From Bacilli bacterium (GTDB lineage: Bacteria; Bacillota_I; Bacilli_A; RFN20; CAG-826): a stretch of 64,000 nt of DNA. The stretch lies in assembly GCA_017534425.1 (NCBI GenBank), contig JAFXWB010000007.1, forward strand, positions 17,550 through 81,549, in the 5' to 3' direction. Position 1 is the stretch's first letter, and each line of letters starts with the position of its first letter. The notes under the pieces are model-generated. The model was not told where the DNA came from. It saw only the letters and a program-made list of their open reading frames with translations, and made no database searches. Positions 1,696 to 64,000 of this stretch are shown here, in pieces. A program made the position numbers and the translations under genes.

Positions 1696-1707
1696 TTTGT
1701 ATTAATC

Positions 1708-1885
1708 ATTAAAGAGGAATCCGAAAGGGTTCCTTTTTTGTTACTTTTATGACCTCTAAAAATATTAAAAAATTTTATTAATTAAAATATTTTAAAAATT
1801 AAGAAAAAACATAATTACTAATTTTAGACGGATATATATAGTGAAGGGGGATAAATTTATGAAATATAAATTATCTAGCAAAGAC
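1708..1885 (+). repeat. Copy A of a ~170-bp duplicated terminator/promoter/SD/start module (partner is 57822..57996, inverted)
   Basis: Direct comparison with the reverse complement of 57822-57996. Shared blocks are a 29-nt identical run (1751-1779), a 13-nt run, and a conserved SD+ATG block. Confidence 0.85.
1715..1740 (+). terminator. Intrinsic terminator of greA
   Basis: aggaatcc-gaaa-gggttcct forms an 8-bp stem with a GAAA loop, followed by TTTTTT. Confidence 0.8.
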
Positions 1886-2035
1886 ATGAAAACTATTATT
1901 ACCGGAGAGATTGCTTTAGCTACAGTTATGGCTATATGCGCGATCGCGCTCATGGCCGTAATAGTATATAAGTTATTTATGTCTAATGAGGGCACTTCTC
2001 AAGTTCCTGGCGGTTGGAAGTTTTCCTGGAAATAA
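1859..2035 (+). CDS. 58-aa single-pass membrane peptide with a C-terminal PGG-WKFSWK tail
   Basis: Strong SD GAAGGGGG lies 8 nt before the ATG at 1859, so the listed start at 1841 is probably too early. It has one hydrophobic helix. Its stop overlaps the radC ATG (TAATG). Confidence 0.55.
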   Translation: MKYKLSSKDMKTIITGEIALATVMAICAIALMAVIVYKLFMSNEGTSQVPGGWKFSWK

Positions 2036-2703
2036 TGAAAATATCTGATATTCCTATTAATTTACGCCCACGCGAGAAGGCATTAATGTATGGAATAGAA
2101 GAACTTTCAGATCAGGAACTTTTAGCTCTCATCATTGGCTCTGGTGGTAGAGGTAATTCTGCCATCGATATAGCTGGAGAGCTACTAAAAACACACGCGA
2201 ACTCAATGGAGTCTCTTTCAAATACGAATTATTGCTCTCTTTTATCGTATCTAGGGCTGAAAAAATCTATTGCTTTGCGCCTTTTAGCGACTTTCGAATT
2301 TAATAGAAGACTTAATACTTATAAGTACAAAAATCCATCCAGAATTGATACCATTCACGATGTCTATTTTCGTTATCAAAATATGGAGAATTTAGACCAT
2401 GAAGAACTGGTAATTTTGATGCTTGATTTGAAGCATAGAATTATTAAAGAAAAAGTACTTTACAAAGGCACTTTTGATTCGTTTGAAATTGATGTTAGAC
2501 AGGTTTTACAAGAGCTTGTTTTAGCTAAAGCTAAATTTTTCTATTTAATTCATAATCATCCGGATGAAGATTCTAGTCCAAGTGATGATGATATCTTGTC
2601 CACAAAAATAGTGGAAAAAGCTTCTAAAAATATGGGAATAAATTTAATTGATCATCTTATTATTTTTAGAGGAGGATTTTCATCTATAAAAATTGAAATT
2701 TGA
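2035..2703 (+). CDS. radC: RadC-like JAB/MPN domain protein
   Basis: N-terminal LRPREK..G...LSD.ELLA helix-hairpin-helix region and JAMM motif HNHPDEDSSPSDDD. The start is taken at MKISDIP (2035), overlapping the upstream stop. Confidence 0.88.
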   Translation: MKISDIPINLRPREKALMYGIEELSDQELLALIIGSGGRGNSAIDIAGELLKTHANSMESLSNTNYCSLLSYLGLKKSIALRLLATFEFNRRLNTYKYKNPSRIDTIHDVYFRYQNMENLDHEELVILMLDLKHRIIKEKVLYKGTFDSFEIDVRQVLQELVLAKAKFFYLIHNHPDEDSSPSDDDILSTKIVEKASKNMGINLIDHLIIFRGGFSSIKIEI

Positions 2704-55785: not shown

Positions 55786-56186
55786 TATTTTAATGCGTCT
55801 TCCGAAAAGGCAAATGGGAGAAGTTCACTAATTGTAGTCTCTTGTACATCGCCTTTTAAATTTGACATATAGATAGGAGCATCTTTTGGGAAAAGTTCAC
55901 TAAGAACTTGTCTACATGCACCACAAGGTGAACATGGTTCGTCAGTGTCTGCCGTTAAAGCTAGAGCAACCATTTCTTCTTTCTGAACGCCATTCATTTT
56001 TGCCATATAAAGTGCGTTTCTTTCAGCACACATGCAAAGAGGATATGAAGAGTTTTCGACGTTTGAACCAACAAAAACTCGACCATCTTTACAAAGTAAA
56101 GCGGCGCCAACAGCAAAATGTGAATAAGGAGAATATGAAAGCTTTCTGGCTTCTTTTGCTCTTTCAATAAGTTCTTCTTTTGTCAT
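55785..56186 (-). CDS. cdd: Cytidine deaminase
   Basis: CAER and PCG.CRQ zinc-binding motifs. 133 aa. Confidence 0.92.
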   Translation of the reverse strand: MTKEELIERAKEARKLSYSPYSHFAVGAALLCKDGRVFVGSNVENSSYPLCMCAERNALYMAKMNGVQKEEMVALALTADTDEPCSPCGACRQVLSELFPKDAPIYMSNLKGDVQETTISELLPFAFSEDALK

Positions 56187-56632
56187 TATTTGAGACCTCC
56201 CAAAATCTTATCTTGTAATTCAAACATTATTTTTTCATCAGCTTCATTCATGTGGTCATATCCAAGCAAATGAAGCATGCCATGAACGAATAAGAACACC
56301 ATTTCTCTTTTAAGAGAATGTTCATATTCTTTAGCTTGTTCTTCAGCTTTTTCAAAAGAAATAATAATTTGCCCTAAGTTAACAGGACCACCTTTTAGTT
56401 CTCTTTCTGATTTTTCATCTAAGAAGGCAAAACTTATAACATCAGTTGGTCGATCAACGTTACGATATTCACGATTAATTTTATGAATAGTTTTGTTATT
56501 AACAATTGTAACGTCGGTAATATATTCGCCTTTTAATTTTAGTTCATCAAAGATTTTAACGTAATAGTCGTTAAACAATTCTTCGTAAGAATCGTATGTC
56601 TTTGGACCTTGGTTCAGAAAATCTATTACCAT
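56186..56632 (-). CDS. ybeY: Endoribonuclease YbeY
   Basis: HGMLHLLGYDH metal-binding motif. Confidence 0.93.
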   Translation of the reverse strand: MVIDFLNQGPKTYDSYEELFNDYYVKIFDELKLKGEYITDVTIVNNKTIHKINREYRNVDRPTDVISFAFLDEKSERELKGGPVNLGQIIISFEKAEEQAKEYEHSLKREMVFLFVHGMLHLLGYDHMNEADEKIMFELQDKILGGLK

Positions 56633-56675
56633 ATTCTTAAGGAAAAGTATTATATCATACTTTCACTTCAAATAT

Positions 56676-57848
56676 CTATAAATTACATGAATCGAAGAAT
56701 CTACGTTCGATTTTGGCATTTTCTTTCCTAAAGGAAAGGTTATTTAACAACTGATTGTAAGAAACAAACCCTGCATAATACATTACAAAGTGGAAAATAA
56801 CAAAGTTACATCCAATGTTTTGTGTCACAAACATCATCGCTACTGCAAAAGCAAAAGACAAAAAGATGTAAAAGATTTCTTTTATTCCTTCTTTAAACAT
56901 TAGTTTATCAGCCTTGAAGCTTGCCTCGATCGCCAAATCTTTTACTGAACTAGCATCTTTAAATGCTTGATTTTCAAGTTCGCCTATACGATTTTTAGTT
57001 TCTTCACCACTTTTTGAAAACATGATTAATTCTAGGAGTTTAAATAAAATTAAAGCTAATAGAACAAACACATTTCTAAAATCATTGAAGCAAAGCAAAA
57101 ATGTAACAGTAAACGCTAATAAAATCGATGCCAAAGTTTGACGATTGCAGGTGAAAAATTGTTTTTTAAATTCATTAAATTGAATGTACTTATCTTTAGT
57201 ACAATTTTTCTTTAATTCAAAGTATTTTGGAATATACTCCTTATCAAAAGTATAAACAAGTTTATAAAGAATACATTTTTCTGCTATTTGAGTGCACACA
57301 AACAGAACTAGAAATGCCAATGAAAATAAGAAGTTTTCACTCTTGTTGAGTAGATAAAAAGCCGCAATTAATAGACCTGCCGAAAATAGAGAAACTAATG
57401 AACTGAGTAAATTTAGTTTTGGAGAAATAACATGTTGTCTATATTTCTCAATTTTAATTACATTTTCAGGATTTTCTGCCTCCAGTACAACACATCTCCA
57501 TCTTCTTAAAAACTCATCTTTCTTCATTTTTACTACACCACGACCAGGGTCATAAATGATAAGACTCTTTTTCTTTCTTTTCTTCACCATAACAACGTGG
57601 TTATCGTCAATTAGAGTTAAAGATGGAGTTTTAATACAATCGAAATATTCTTTTGTGCAACCGCTTCCTTCTAAAGTTACTCCATAAGTTTTACTTATTT
57701 GCACTAAATCATCGAGACTATAATATTCGCGCTTAGTGGGCTTAGGAATAAAAAGATATGATTTGTCTTTAGCAAGTGTAGCCAAAAGCATTTTTAGTGA
57801 GGCAAAACCACAATCATGATCGTTGCCTTGATAGATAAAGTACTTCAT
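56676..57848 (-). CDS. C39 peptidase domain fused to a ~6-TM PCAT-like membrane domain, no ABC ATPase domain
   Basis: The start is taken at the ATG at 57848, 8 nt after SD GAAGGGGG. The catalytic set Q7/C13 (YQGNDHDCGFASLKMLL), His (DDNHVVMV) and Asp 16 residues later (IIYDPGRG) is present. Hydrophobic helices follow to the C-terminus at 390 aa. No Walker motifs. Confidence 0.75.
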   Translation of the reverse strand: MKYFIYQGNDHDCGFASLKMLLATLAKDKSYLFIPKPTKREYYSLDDLVQISKTYGVTLEGSGCTKEYFDCIKTPSLTLIDDNHVVMVKKRKKKSLIIYDPGRGVVKMKKDEFLRRWRCVVLEAENPENVIKIEKYRQHVISPKLNLLSSLVSLFSAGLLIAAFYLLNKSENFLFSLAFLVLFVCTQIAEKCILYKLVYTFDKEYIPKYFELKKNCTKDKYIQFNEFKKQFFTCNRQTLASILLAFTVTFLLCFNDFRNVFVLLALILFKLLELIMFSKSGEETKNRIGELENQAFKDASSVKDLAIEASFKADKLMFKEGIKEIFYIFLSFAFAVAMMFVTQNIGCNFVIFHFVMYYAGFVSYNQLLNNLSFRKENAKIERRFFDSCNL

Positions 57849-57996
57849 AAATACTTCCCCCTTCACTATATCTATCCACCCAAAAAATGACTTTCTGCTA
57901 TTTTGACCTTGTTTAAAATATTTTATAAATAAAATTTTTTAATATTTTTAGAGGTCGTAAAAAACAAAAAAGAACCATTTCAGATTCCTCTAGTTT
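57822..57996 (-). repeat. Copy B of the duplicated terminator/promoter/SD/start module (partner is 1708..1885)
   Basis: The reverse complement aligns with 1708-1885. The 29-nt identical run is at 57928-57956. Confidence 0.85.
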
Positions 57997-58102
57997 AATT
58001 GGTCAAATTATTTCATATTACATCTTGTTAATTTTTCTAGGACAATCTTAGAAATAAAGGTGTTTAATATTTCATTAAATATTGCTAAAATGATTAGTAA
58101 TT

Positions 58103-59662
58103 ATGGCTATAGAAAATAAAATAACAACATTTTTAAACAAAAGAACTTGGATTATTCCTTTGTTATTCGGACTTATGTGTCTATGTTTAGTCTCATCACT
58201 TCTCGGTGTTGAACTAAAAGGTGTAAGAAATATGGATCATTTCTTGACATTTAATACTGGCGCGGAACTGGCAGCAATATTTGCTGGGGTAATGGTAACG
58301 TTTTCGATATTGCCATCTTACAAAAGACAAAGTGGCTACACTCGAGTATTCGTTTCTTTAATCGCAGTACTTTGCTTTTTAATGGCATGCGATATCGGTG
58401 AAGCTCTAGTTGATAAGATTCCTGAATTAACTTGGTTAAATAAAACTTTTGCGACTCTTGTTTGGGCAAACGAAACAGCTGTTTGGTTCTTTTTCTTTGT
58501 TTATTGTACGCACGTATTAAAGAGCCAGGGAAAAGTAATTTCGATTTCTTATTTGATTGGTGTTATTACGCTTGTAATATTTGTTTTAATTCCTGTTGTT
58601 ACAGTCGGAAATCCACTTTATTTTAAAGTTATAGACGGAGTCTATTATCGTAAAGCAGCTGGTGATCACTACTTATGGTACATTTCTCGATTTCCATCAG
58701 TCATTTTTAGTGTTTTAACAATCATTGCTATTTTCCTTTCTAAAGAAAAAATTAGAACAAAAATTATTATTTCTATTTTTATGGGACTTCCACTCGTTGC
58801 AATGGGTTCAGGTGGATATAAAACAGGCGTTGCCGTTCAATATGTCGCAATGATGATGTCTGTTGTATTAATGTTTGCGTTCTTATTTTCTGATAATGAA
58901 AAAGATTTGTTCTCTACAAATAAAGAACTTGGTCTTGCAACCAATATTCAAAAACATATGCTTCCATCAATCTTCCCTGCTTTTCCTGACAGGAAAGAAT
59001 TTGATATTTTTGCATCAATGTCACCTGCTAAGGAAGTTGGCGGAGACTTTTATGATTTCTTCTTAATAGATGATTATCATCTAGGTCTTGTCATGGCTGA
59101 CGTTTCTGATAAAGGTATCCCTGCTGCTTTATTTATGATGGCATGCAAAATCATGGTTCAAAACTATGCAATGATGGGGAAATCACCTTCTGAAGTTTTA
59201 ACTTCAGTTAATAATCAAATTTGTCAAAACAATCAAGATGAAATGTTTGTAACAATTTGGCTTGGAATTTTAGATTTAAAAACCGGTATATTAACTGCTG
59301 CCAATGCTGGTCATGAAAAACCTGCCATCCAAAATGATGAAGGCAAATTTGAATTATTTAAGGACACTCACGGATTTGTTGTGGGTTGGTATAAAGGCGT
59401 TAAATATGTTGATTATCAAGTTCAACTTAAAAAAGGAAGTAAAATCTTCCTTTATACTGACGGAGTTCCTGAGGCCACTTCTGCTAATGGACAATTTACA
59501 CGTGAAAGAATGGTAAAAACACTTAACAAGTACCGTGATATGCAACCACAAGAAATTATCCAAAATATGAAAGATGATATTGATTTGTTTGTTGGTCAAG
59601 CTGATCAATTTGATGATATAACTATGTTATGTGCAGAATTTAAAGGTTACGATAATGAATAA
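58103..59662 (+). CDS. Multi-pass membrane sensor fused to a SpoIIE/RsbU-type PP2C serine phosphatase
   Basis: The N-terminal ~265 aa carry ~7 hydrophobic helices. The C-terminal domain has GGDFYDF, MADVSDKG, LYTDG and QFDDITML motifs. Confidence 0.85.
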   Translation: MAIENKITTFLNKRTWIIPLLFGLMCLCLVSSLLGVELKGVRNMDHFLTFNTGAELAAIFAGVMVTFSILPSYKRQSGYTRVFVSLIAVLCFLMACDIGEALVDKIPELTWLNKTFATLVWANETAVWFFFFVYCTHVLKSQGKVISISYLIGVITLVIFVLIPVVTVGNPLYFKVIDGVYYRKAAGDHYLWYISRFPSVIFSVLTIIAIFLSKEKIRTKIIISIFMGLPLVAMGSGGYKTGVAVQYVAMMMSVVLMFAFLFSDNEKDLFSTNKELGLATNIQKHMLPSIFPAFPDRKEFDIFASMSPAKEVGGDFYDFFLIDDYHLGLVMADVSDKGIPAALFMMACKIMVQNYAMMGKSPSEVLTSVNNQICQNNQDEMFVTIWLGILDLKTGILTAANAGHEKPAIQNDEGKFELFKDTHGFVVGWYKGVKYVDYQVQLKKGSKIFLYTDGVPEATSANGQFTRERMVKTLNKYRDMQPQEIIQNMKDDIDLFVGQADQFDDITMLCAEFKGYDNE

Positions 59663-60062
59663 TTACCAGGTACCAGCAAACGTCGAATTAATCAATAAGA
59701 TGATAGATCCTATCATTTCTTCTCTAGAAGAAATTGAAGTTGAACATAAAAAGATTTATCAAGTAACTCTAGCATTAGAAGAGATCTTTGCTAACATTTC
59801 TAAATATGCTTACCCTTCTGGTGAAGGGATAATCGATATATTTTACGAAATCAAAAAAGACGAAAAACAACTAAAAGTTGTTATTAAAGATAAAGGCACC
59901 GCTTTTAATCCGTTAGAGAAAGAGGATCCTGATTTAGCCGCTTCAGTTTCAGAAAGAAAAATAGGTGGATTAGGTATTTATATTGTTAAAAATATTATCG
60001 ATGATATAAAATATCAACGAATCAATAATGAAAATATATTAGAACTCATTAAACAATTATAA
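59655..60062 (+). CDS. RsbW/SpoIIAB-type anti-sigma serine kinase (HATPase_c)
   Basis: N-box EEIFANISKYAY, DKGTAFNP and GGLGIYIV. ~135 aa. The ATG at 59655 overlaps the phosphatase stop. Confidence 0.8.
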   Translation: MNNYQVPANVELINKMIDPIISSLEEIEVEHKKIYQVTLALEEIFANISKYAYPSGEGIIDIFYEIKKDEKQLKVVIKDKGTAFNPLEKEDPDLAASVSERKIGGLGIYIVKNIIDDIKYQRINNENILELIKQL

Positions 60063-60077
60063 TTGGAGGGCAAAATA

Positions 60078-60374
60078 ATGACTATTAAAGAAAAAAGAGA
60101 TGGAAATAAACTTGTTGTTAGTGTTGAAGGAAGAATTGACACTAATACATCACCAGAACTTAGCGAATATTTCCAACAACATCTTAAAGATGTTAAAGAA
60201 CTTGAACTTGATTTAGAAAATGTAAATTATGTTTCATCAGCAGGTTTAAGAACCATTCTTTTTGCCCAAAAAACGATGGATAAACAAGGCAAGATGGTTG
60301 TTTCACATGTTTGCAAAGAAATCATGGAAACATTTGAATTAACTTGCTTCACTGACATTTTAACAATTATCTAA
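60078..60374 (+). CDS. STAS-domain anti-sigma-factor antagonist (RsbV/SpoIIAA-like)
   Basis: 98 aa with the phosphorylatable-serine motif NYVSSAGL. The ATG at 60078 follows a GGAGGG SD. Confidence 0.82.
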   Translation: MTIKEKRDGNKLVVSVEGRIDTNTSPELSEYFQQHLKDVKELELDLENVNYVSSAGLRTILFAQKTMDKQGKMVVSHVCKEIMETFELTCFTDILTII

Positions 60375-60394
60375 TTTCTTATAAAATAAGAAAC

Positions 60395-60427
60395 AAAAAG
60401 AAGGCCGATTAATCGACCTTCTTTTTA
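60395..60427. terminator. Bidirectional intrinsic terminator between the STAS gene and rpsU
   Basis: agaaggccgat-ta-atcgaccttct hairpin flanked by A-run and T-run. Confidence 0.8.
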
Positions 60428-60436
60428 AATGCTTAA

Positions 60437-60610
60437 TTAGTAAGTTTTACGACGAGCCATCTCTGATTTGCGTTTTCTCTTCAAACCTTTTTTGAGATAG
60501 AATTCTCTTTTACGTGCTTCAAGAAGAACACCGGATTTGTTGACTTGTCTTTTGAAACGACGAAGAGCTTCGTCTAATTGTTCATTTTCTCTAACGACAA
60601 TTTTTGGCAT
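60437..60610 (-). CDS. rpsU: 30S ribosomal protein S21 (below the ORF-track length cutoff)
   Basis: Manual minus-strand translation gives [65 protein letters not shown] lies upstream. Confidence 0.9.
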
Positions 60611-60651
60611 TTTTTTCTCACTTCCTTTCGTACGTAACGGGAATAATTATA

Positions 60652-61296
60652 TTATTCTCCTTTGACAATTGCAACACCACATGATGCGCCAATACGAGAT
60701 GCACCAGCTTCGATCATTGCTTCGGCTTCTTGTTTGTTATGAATTCCGCCGCTTGCTTTGACACCAATATTTGGTCCGACTGCTGCTCTCATTAATCTGA
60801 CTGCTTCGATTGTAGCGCCGCATTTTGAGAAACCTGTAGATGTTTTAACATAATCTGCACCAGCTCTAACGCAAGCTTTTGAACATTCGGTAATTTCTTC
60901 ATCTGTTAATAAGCAGGTTTCGAGAATTACTTTTAGTAAAATCTTTCCACAAGCCTTTTTAACAAGTCTTACTTCGTCTTCAATATAAGCGTAATTATGC
61001 TCTTTAGCCATAGAATCGTTTAAGACCATATCGACTTCTGTAGCACCTGCTTTGATAGCAAGTTTTGCTTCGTAAGCTTTGCTTTCTGGTAATGTTGCAC
61101 CTAATGGGAAACCAACGACTGTGCAAACTTTGACATCTGTGCCTTTAAGTTCTTTTGCGGCTAGAGGTACAAAGCCTGGGTTTACGCATACGGATGCGAA
61201 ATGATATTCTTTTGCTTCTGCACACAATTTAATGATTGCTTCGGTTGAGGCATCTTGTTTGAGAAGGGTGTGATCAATCATTCTTGCGATTTCCAT
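60652..61296 (-). CDS. deoC: Deoxyribose-phosphate aldolase
   Basis: IDHTLLK, VCV.P and a Schiff-base Lys context (VKTSTGF). 214 aa. Confidence 0.92.
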
Positions 61297-63584: not shown

Positions 63585-64000
63585 TTATTCTAAGAACTCT
63601 CCATGTGAATCTTGGATGTTGTGTTTTGTTAAATACATAACTGCAGTAAATAAGCTATAAGCTTCTACCACAAAATAAGGAATTAAGAATGCAAAAACGC
63701 TTTGCCATTTAACGGCAAAGAACAAAATAAAACCAACTCCACCAATTAATGCTAAACAAATACAGGCTGTAAGAAAACCTTTCTTAACTTTGCCTAAGTA
63801 GAAATGTGGAGCGCCTAAAAATCCAAAGAGAACTGCTAAAATAGCAGCAACAACTCTCTTTTTGTGTTTAATTTCAACAGCATTTTCTAATTGGTCAACG
63901 ATCTTTGTCACGTCTTGTGTAGAAGTATCTGTACCATCTAATGGTCTTTTTCCACCGCAAAATGGACAAACTTCTTTGTCGATACGAGTAATAGATGCGT
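63585..64000 (-). CDS. TM2-domain membrane protein, apparently with an N-terminal zinc-ribbon-like segment (5' end beyond window)
   Basis: TM2 motif FGFLGAPHFYLG. The minus-strand frame stays open upstream of the listed GTG to the window edge (..HLLLVSTKKFVHFCGGKRPLDGTDTSTQD-VTKIV..). Confidence 0.6.
   Translation of the reverse strand, partial: ASITRIDKEVCPFCGGKRPLDGTDTSTQDVTKIVDQLENAVEIKHKKRVVAAILAVLFGFLGAPHFYLGKVKKGFLTACICLALIGGVGFILFFAVKWQSVFAFLIPYFVVEAYSLFTAVMYLTKHNIQDSHGEFLE

Follow-up and report, generated by a model that had tools for sequence, protein, structure and literature searches.

A conserved ATPase-less C39 membrane protein and a variably placed partner-switching cassette side by side in an uncultured Bacilli bacterium

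Described systems and the rpsU-ybeY block

Two groups of described systems are closest to the genes analyzed here: the PCAT/AMS proteins (ATP-binding cassette transporters with a peptidase domain), represented by PCAT1 of Clostridium thermocellum, ComA and LahT, and the partner-switching modules RsbU-RsbV-RsbW and SpoIIE-SpoIIAA-SpoIIAB of Bacillus. Relatives of both were found side by side between ybeY and rpsU at positions 56676-60427 of a 64,000-nt stretch of contig JAFXWB010000007.1 (the whole stretch is called the window in the following), which comes from an uncultured low-GC member of the Bacilli. These bacteria are represented in ruminant, horse and other gut metagenomes, with Candidatus Fiminaster equi as a named relative. 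The block is probably a juxtaposition of two independent units, namely a gene for a C39 peptidase with a membrane domain, which is tied to a small peptide gene elsewhere in the window, and a three-gene partner-switching cassette.

The C39 protein has the same N-terminal C39 domain with the Gln/Cys/His/Asp site as the PCAT/AMS proteins, and its following membrane domain aligns with the transmembrane domain (TMD) of PCAT1 by fold and profile. It likewise has a candidate substrate with a double-glycine-type leader, but the gene of this peptide is located approximately 55 kb away and not nearby. In contrast to the PCAT/AMS proteins, the nucleotide-binding domain is absent, the membrane part is shorter (about 250 amino acids, aa) and the gene is located in the ybeY-era cluster as a core gene of single copy, not in a locus for bacteriocins or pheromones. 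The candidate substrate differs as well, being highly conserved and mostly hydrophobic with a Thr at position −2 of the leader. With the precursors of class II bacteriocins and competence pheromones it shares the leader type LSxxE(M/L)xx(I/V)xGG and the small hydrophobic/cationic peptide, whereas the near-invariant mature part and the constant position as the first gene before radC are different.

The cassette encodes the same types of proteins as the Bacillus modules, a PP2C phosphatase, a GHKL kinase and a STAS protein with a conserved serine. Other examples of partner switching are SypE-SypA of Vibrio fischeri and Rv1364c of Mycobacterium tuberculosis, a phosphatase-kinase fusion like those found among the relatives of the cassette. 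The cassette differs from the Rsb/SpoIIA modules in the gene order phosphatase-kinase-STAS, the lack of an attached sigma factor gene, an uncharacterized multi-helix membrane sensor and a variable chromosomal position.

The original prediction had described the block as an island interrupting a conserved backbone, with two divergent units sharing a control region. The four genes counted between ybeY and rpsU with the list of open reading frames (ORFs) and Pfam (C39, membrane PP2C, RsbW-like kinase and STAS) agree with it in position (Table 1). The same is true for the 254-nt spacer (57849-58102), for which the conserved ATG (MKYFIYQ) was taken as the C39 start, and for the copy of peptide-gene upstream DNA in this spacer, which matches 1713-1866 in blastn over 155 nt with 80% identity (E 4e-32). 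As a unit, the block is not an island: the C39 gene is constant and belongs to the backbone (39 of 43 loci, see below), and the three-gene cassette alone varies.

Table 1. Coordinates of the block, its flanks and the distant peptide gene in the window (RBS, ribosome binding site).
Feature	Position	Strand	Remark
Upstream module copy A: greA terminator (1711-1738), AT-rich promoter region, RBS, first codons (ATG AAA TAT)	1701-1870	+	
58-aa precursor, double-glycine-type leader (MKYKLSSKDMKTIITG, followed by E), one membrane helix	1859-2035	+	end overlaps radC ORF
ybeY	56186-56632	-	flank of block
C39 peptidase with membrane domain, 390 aa, no nucleotide-binding domain	56676-57848	-	Peptidase_C39, E 2.9e-17
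Upstream module copy B: AT-rich promoter region, short leader, RBS GAAGGGGGA	about 57841/57849-57991	-	
Decayed hairpin with T-run (GAGGAATCTGAAATGGTTCT TTTTT)	57966-57990	-	read from sequence
Promoter-like site of the cassette: TTAATA, 16 nt, TG-extended TAAAAT	58064-58091	+	upstream of PP2C gene
Membrane PP2C (SpoIIE/RsbU-type), 519 aa	58103-59662	+	Pfam SpoIIE, E 9.4e-47
RsbW-like GHKL serine kinase	59655-60062 (ATG); alternative GTG 59631	+	HATPase_c_2, E 3.1e-22
Single-domain STAS protein (anti-sigma-antagonist type)	60063-60374	+	Pfam STAS, E 3.5e-13
Hairpin terminator common to convergent rpsU and STAS	60394-60427	.	scan: 15 pairs, tail TTTCTTATTT
rpsU	60437-60610	-	flank of block

The C39 gene and the partner-switching cassette

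For the analysis of the C39 position, one genome per species was searched with an alignment of C39 homologues, resulting in 43 loci with C39 identities from 67% to 24% that were annotated using phmmer. In 39 of these, rpsU is followed within 258 nt or less by C39 and then by ybeY, and ybeY-cdd-era-recO follows C39 wherever the contig reaches. The order rpsU-C39-ybeY-cdd-era-recO persists down to a C39 identity of 24%; the remaining four comprise one locus with intervening genes (L050) and three without an rpsU match. The C39 gene is a lineage-wide backbone gene heading the ybeY-cdd-era-recO cluster, and it occupies the slot held by phoH/yqfF in Bacillus. In none of the 43 loci was a SpoIIE, RsbW or STAS match found closer than 7 kb to C39. 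Two metagenome contigs with C39 identities of 84% (L001) and 49% (L004) also have the order rpsU-C39-ybeY and are free of the cassette. A C39 protein with a membrane domain and without an ATPase is present in every relative examined. The gene is the sole C39 gene in the window, and its stop codon is separated from the ybeY start by 43 nt.

The locus with intervening genes, from a Coprobacillus sp. metagenome-assembled genome (4794-8137), contains YqfD-like and phosphatase-like genes between rpsU and a C39-like gene. The latter encodes a more distant C39-like membrane protein and lies directly upstream of ybeY. The placement of C39 upstream of ybeY may extend into the Erysipelotrichaceae.

The Peptidase_C39 domain (PF03412) was identified at residues 9-132 with a score of 63 bits (cut-off 22), and Q7, C13, H84 and D100 are invariant across 13 aligned homologues of 30-100% identity. 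No ABC_tran match was found in the protein using Pfam, and the chain ends at residue 390. A pseudogene or truncation as the cause of the missing ATPase was ruled out by the conserved length of the homologues, which form more than 120 clusters with nearly all members at about 390 aa. Using the AlphaFold2 (AF2) model (mean predicted local distance difference test, pLDDT, of 79) and a profile search, PCAT1 and LahT150 were found to be the closest structures. PCAT1 matched the model across peptidase and TMD with a Foldseek E of 2e-11 but a low TM-score of 0.35-0.39, whereas LahT150 reached a TM-score of 0.73 and a profile match of 2e-12. The profile alignment covers residues 44-342 of the C39 protein and 57-394 of PCAT1, and the approximately 250-aa membrane domain is a candidate TMD of the ABC-exporter type. 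By its domain make-up the C39 protein is a PCAT without the motor. Since it has no ATPase domain and its length is conserved, it works like a part of a PCAT and is not a member of this group. A literature search for ATPase-less C39 membrane proteins, or for C39 proteins with partner switching, retrieved nothing pertinent. In comparisons of the window with L003, L010 and L012, identities were 49-63% for the C39 protein, 89-96% for era, deoC and rpsU and 69-88% for the peptide.

The first protein of the cassette carries the SpoIIE domain PF07228 (160 bits). Approximately eight predicted helices (residues 17-269) precede the phosphatase domain (about residues 300-513), and the AF2 model (pLDDT 79.5) also consists of about eight helices followed by a PP2C fold. 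The fold matches in the PDB include the PP2C domain of RssB, SiaA, Rv1364c (3ke6), RsbX and SpoIIE, with alignments of 220-320 columns that cover little beyond the phosphatase part. For the N-terminal membrane domain no Pfam family was found at E ≤ 0.01; close homologues including this part are common in the clade.

The start codon (ATG) of the kinase gene overlaps the end of the PP2C gene by 8 nt. The kinase matches HATPase_c_2 (PF13581) with 79 bits, the NCBIfam model of RsbW with 3.8e-12 and the RsbW structure 6m36 in the PDB with 1.2e-5. Since the NCBIfam match is below the equivalog cut-offs, the kinase is regarded as a relative and not as an orthologue of RsbW. In many relatives (P0244, P0252, P0264-P0270 and many more) phosphatase and kinase are fused to a protein of about 651 aa. 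The fused gene of L054 (7001-8956) corresponds to the two genes that are split at 59631-59662 in the window. Such a fusion represents a membrane-tethered kinase, which argues against a role as a freely diffusing anti-sigma factor.

The STAS protein scored 61.1 bits against TIGR00377 of NCBIfam (cut-off 53.45). Its conserved, phosphorylatable serine (VNYVSSAGL, with the core YVSSAGL) is aligned with YMDSTGL of RsbV and YMSSAGL of 4hyl, and the surrounding region matches that of the phosphorylated serine of RsbV and SpoIIAA. A sigma factor gene was not found with the cassette in the window or in L003, L052, L053 and L054, and the nearby sigA belongs to the conserved dnaG-sigA backbone. The cassette is an ordinary partner-switching module. 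PADLOC gave zero defense-system matches for the four proteins of the block.

The variable part of the block comprises only the region from about 58.0 to 60.43 kb, which is the cassette with its promoter and terminator. It is a self-contained unit whose chromosomal position differs among close relatives. Only in the window, L003 (C39 identity 63%) and L054 (60%) was it found beside C39, in the same orientation each time. The synteny comparison thus did not bear out the block as a unit, with the cassette beside C39 in 0 of the 43 species-level loci and at other places in three genomes. In L052 it is located between NRPS-like (non-ribosomal peptide synthetase) and amine oxidase genes; this 648-kb contig also carries the C39 locus L010, which is free of the cassette. 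The cassette of L053 (PP2C 77% identical to the window) lies between an AAA_14 gene and hypothetical genes, and that of L057 (79%) adjoins ABC/FtsX genes.

The core-gene tree has the topology ((window, L001), (L010, (L054, L003))), and the PP2C tree contains the groups (L052, (window, (L053, L057))) and (L054, L003). In the PP2C tree, the rpsU-C39 cassettes of the window and of L003 and L054 do not form one clade, and neither do their host genomes in the core-gene tree. Either the site is ancestral, with about three later departures of the cassette, or there were two arrivals. Core proteins of the window and L003 share 83-96% identity, compared to 58-69% for PP2C, kinase, STAS and C39. In the lineage of the window the cassette lies between rpsU and the old rpsU-C39 spacer. 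Since it is absent at this site in the 43 relatives and found at other places elsewhere, the head-to-head layout looks incidental, and the divergent arrangement is most likely an accident of cassette placement.

The divergent spacer is made up of two halves that are independent of each other, since on one side the old upstream region of C39 has been kept and on the other the cassette has a separate promoter of its own. Copy B matches the entire rpsU-C39 spacer of the cassette-free contig L001 in an alignment. On the other side, the TTGnTAAAAT element and the start ATGGCnATnGAAA are conserved in all five aligned cassette contexts, whatever their location, as are the 40-50 nt ahead of the PP2C start codon. 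A search for a shared operator-like repeat in the spacer found none, and the C39 and cassette promoters lie in separate parts. A scan with the sigma-70 consensus revealed no convincing promoter inside the shared upstream module. The Rfam scan of 56000-61000 (E ≤ 1) gave CsrC on the rpsU terminator as the sole match, which is spurious, so there is no known riboswitch or leader in the spacer.

In four of the five aligned cassette contexts a hairpin terminator follows the STAS gene, and none is evident in L053. In the window this strong hairpin (60394-60427) is homologous to the native rpsU terminators of L010, L054 and L003. The hairpin at 57966-57990 fails the terminator scan and follows no gene now. 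It is similar both to the native rpsU terminator of L001 and to the greA terminator of the window, and has either been left over from the former rpsU terminator or been copied from that of greA. The window holds two hairpins of the rpsU-terminator kind that differ in type, the one on the rpsU side being like those of L010, L054 and L003 and the one on the C39 side like that of the closest relative L001. The two types would be consistent with a recombination event that brought in both the cassette and a foreign rpsU terminator from a relative.

The block has none of the other marks of a genomic island. Its GC content (0.27-0.35) is close to that of the surroundings (0.30-0.38), no tRNA genes were found in the mobility check, terminal, flanking or target-site repeats of the block were not found, and the ORF list contains no integrase, transposase or other mobility genes in it. 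Outside the block, a gene for a small TM2-domain membrane protein (63585-63911) adjoins rsmE; L004 and L054 likewise have a TM2 gene beside the gene at the rsmE position (Pfam Methyltrans_RNA).

The peptide precursor and the shared upstream module

The window contains just two copies of the upstream module, one at the C39 gene and the other at the gene of the 58-aa peptide. For a comparison of such modules, the upstream 140 nt of both genes were analyzed in five genomes (window, L005/L003, L007/L004, L055/L010 and L056/L014). The local alignment scores within the genomes were 141, 104, 92, 81 and 63, whereas scores between distant genomes were about 20-35, even for the same gene. The similarity reaches the RBS and the first three codons. 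The upstream regions of the unlinked peptide and C39 genes evolve in concert in all five genomes, which is the best evidence that the two genes may belong together. From the near-identical upstream regions within each genome, we infer that both genes are probably co-expressed. In some genomes, e.g., L007/L004, the similarity also covers the preceding terminator hairpin. Gene conversion or a common regulator or leader may underlie the likeness.

The peptide homologues form 156 clusters; identities are 66-100% for the 120 listed, nearly all of which have a length of 58 aa. With identities of 88% vs 63% and 69% vs 49% in two genomes, the peptide is more conserved than C39. A profile search against 1.8 billion representative proteins retrieved 59 peptide-related clusters. 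The N-termini of distant homologues read LSxxE(M/L)xx(I/V)xGG, followed by E or A and a hydrophobic helix. The leader pattern is L(−12), S/T, two variable positions, E/D(−8), M/L, two variable positions, I/V(−4), one variable position, G/T/V and G(−1), with E after the candidate cleavage site. A true GG leader was found in 14 of 36 homologues from the profile search and in most of the 37 metagenome peptides (list read by eye). The published consensus sequences of double-glycine leaders are L(−12)x3E(−8)L(−7)…GG (PMC6363468) and M(R/K)ELX3E(I/L)X2(I/V)XG(G/A) (PMC3140520). The peptide of the window fits at L5, S6, D9, M10, I13 and G16, with T15 at position −2.

The C-terminal Gly-Gly (G51-G52), which had been considered as the processing site, is probably not the one used, since the match to the consensus (L5, D9, M10, T15, G16) is located at the N-terminus and the stretch ahead of G51-G52 departs from it, with Gly at −8 and Thr at −7. 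The cut by C39 is therefore placed, as the likely site, after G16 (…IITG↓EIAL…). The tail PGGWKF[ST]WK (PGGWKFSWK in the window) is invariant, with the PGG found in all 31 aligned family members, and there is hardly any variation between species in the entire mature part, WKFSWK included. Because of the likely cut after G16, WKFSWK is probably not a released signal, and the nearly invariant mature part is unlike a released pheromone. NCBIfam and Pfam revealed nothing significant for the peptide, and one homologue has a weak sub-threshold match to the class IIb lactobin/cerein family. No immunity, transporter or regulator gene was found beside the peptide gene. Together with the near-invariance of the mature part and the constant position before radC, this points to a membrane peptide with a housekeeping role and not to a weapon or signal.

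The peptide gene lies between greA and radC in every genome examined. Among 45 metagenome loci retrieved with the distant peptides, all adequately flanked ones, distant lineages included, have it immediately upstream of radC, and the genes for L21, Prp, L27 and Obg usually come next. The ORFs of peptide and radC often overlap (1859-2703 in the window; L005, L007, L055, L056 and L058-L102). RadC of the window (2014-2703) contains HNHPDEDSSPSDDD, which by eye fits the JAB/JAMM motif HxHx7Sx2D. Peptidases of the JAB/JAMM type cut after a C-terminal Gly-Gly. To our knowledge, the function of RadC is not established, and a literature search for RadC with double-glycine peptides retrieved nothing pertinent. 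In a bolder version, which is pure inference, RadC itself might act on the invariant PGG↓W tail of the peptide.

Alternative explanations and biological meaning

The most probable explanation for the block is that of two independent units with separate tasks. The cytoplasmic peptidase domain of C39 would remove the 16-residue double-glycine-type leader of the 58-aa membrane peptide, and the membrane domain of C39 may assist in holding or inserting the mature peptide with its single helix. Independently, a membrane or envelope signal would set how phosphatase and kinase are balanced on the serine of STAS, with either STAS or the kinase then acting on a downstream target.

The original prediction had joined all four genes and the peptide into one hypothetical circuit, in which C39 would cut after G51-G52 and the membrane PP2C would sense WKFSWK and reset the phosphorylation of STAS. 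Its first half, the tie between C39 and the peptide, is indirectly supported by the concerted upstream DNA and the double-glycine leader as read from the sequences, but the coupling to the cassette is not, given the 43 loci without an adjacent cassette and the three genomes with it at other sites. The invariant PGG before the tail in the 31 aligned members, the divergent neighborhood of C39 and cassette in the window, L003 and L054, and the upstream DNA shared by C39 and peptide genes are in line with such a circuit. However, the leader consensus is fitted by the N-terminus and not by the residues before G51-G52 (PMC6363468), and WKF[ST]WK is invariant while the C39 proteins are only 49% identical, unlike in a signaling peptide. 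In addition, the tail would be outside if the N-terminus of the peptide is inside, whereas the C39 domain, which has no signal peptide, is expected to be cytoplasmic. The complete circuit is thus highly improbable. It is also unlikely, though conceivable, that the cassette regulates the C39 gene or its product locally, via the spacer or its target, with the adjacency selected at least twice. In favor of this, the cassette of the window groups with those of L053 and L057 while L003 and L054 form another clade, so that the site was reached twice or is ancestral, and the whole C39 upstream module is intact after the insertion. On the other hand, most relatives have C39 without a neighboring cassette, the promoters occupy separate parts of the spacer without a shared operator-like repeat found between them, and three departures from an ancestral site account for the pattern roughly as well as two independent arrivals.

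A further explanation concerns the link between C39 and the peptide itself. The two could be functionally unrelated, with the shared DNA arising from gene conversion between similar terminator-promoter spacers and C39 processing another substrate or needing an ATPase encoded elsewhere. The two genes are never linked, the similarity includes the upstream terminators in L007/L004, as gene conversion would give, and C39, with an identity of 63%, changes much more quickly than the peptide with 88%. Nevertheless, this appears rather doubtful, as a double-glycine leader needs a C39-type peptidase and this one is the sole in the window, the C39 gene is present in all five genomes with both loci examined, and the concerted similarity is seen in five of five genomes, where it includes the RBS and also the first three codons.

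Several points weigh against two independent units with a C39-peptide pair, which is nevertheless preferred here. The cassette is found at exactly the rpsU-C39 site in two separate cassette lineages (window; L003/L054), and this recurrence could reflect selection for adjacency and not chance or shared ancestry. Position −2 of the leader is Thr and not Gly in the window and close relatives, resulting in a candidate TG cut site. No C39 gene was found within 6 kb of the peptide gene in the 45 metagenome loci, nor a peptide gene near the C39 loci of the 43 genomes, and in the window the two are about 55 kb apart. The upstream similarity could derive from gene conversion without functional meaning. 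Furthermore, coverage of C39, the spacer and the peptide-radC junction in the metatranscriptome-type runs X23 and X24 was thin, consisting only of short contigs of low depth that stem from related strains.

As an island or a single circuit, the block is of little significance, being an ordinary module beside a core gene. The pair of C39 and peptide, both core genes, is an uncharacterized variant of the PCAT systems. We tentatively propose that it represents a clade-wide housekeeping double-glycine system of a large group of uncultured gut and digester Bacilli, with a 56-62-aa peptide upstream of radC, an ATPase-less C39 protein at the ybeY-era cluster and near-identical promoters evolving in concert. 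If this is true, a leader peptidase of the PCAT type would serve a conserved, apparently housekeeping membrane peptide and not bacteriocins or pheromones. The strict pairing of peptide and radC also provides a lead on the function of RadC, and PGG↓W, if RadC does act on it, would be the first concrete RadC substrate.

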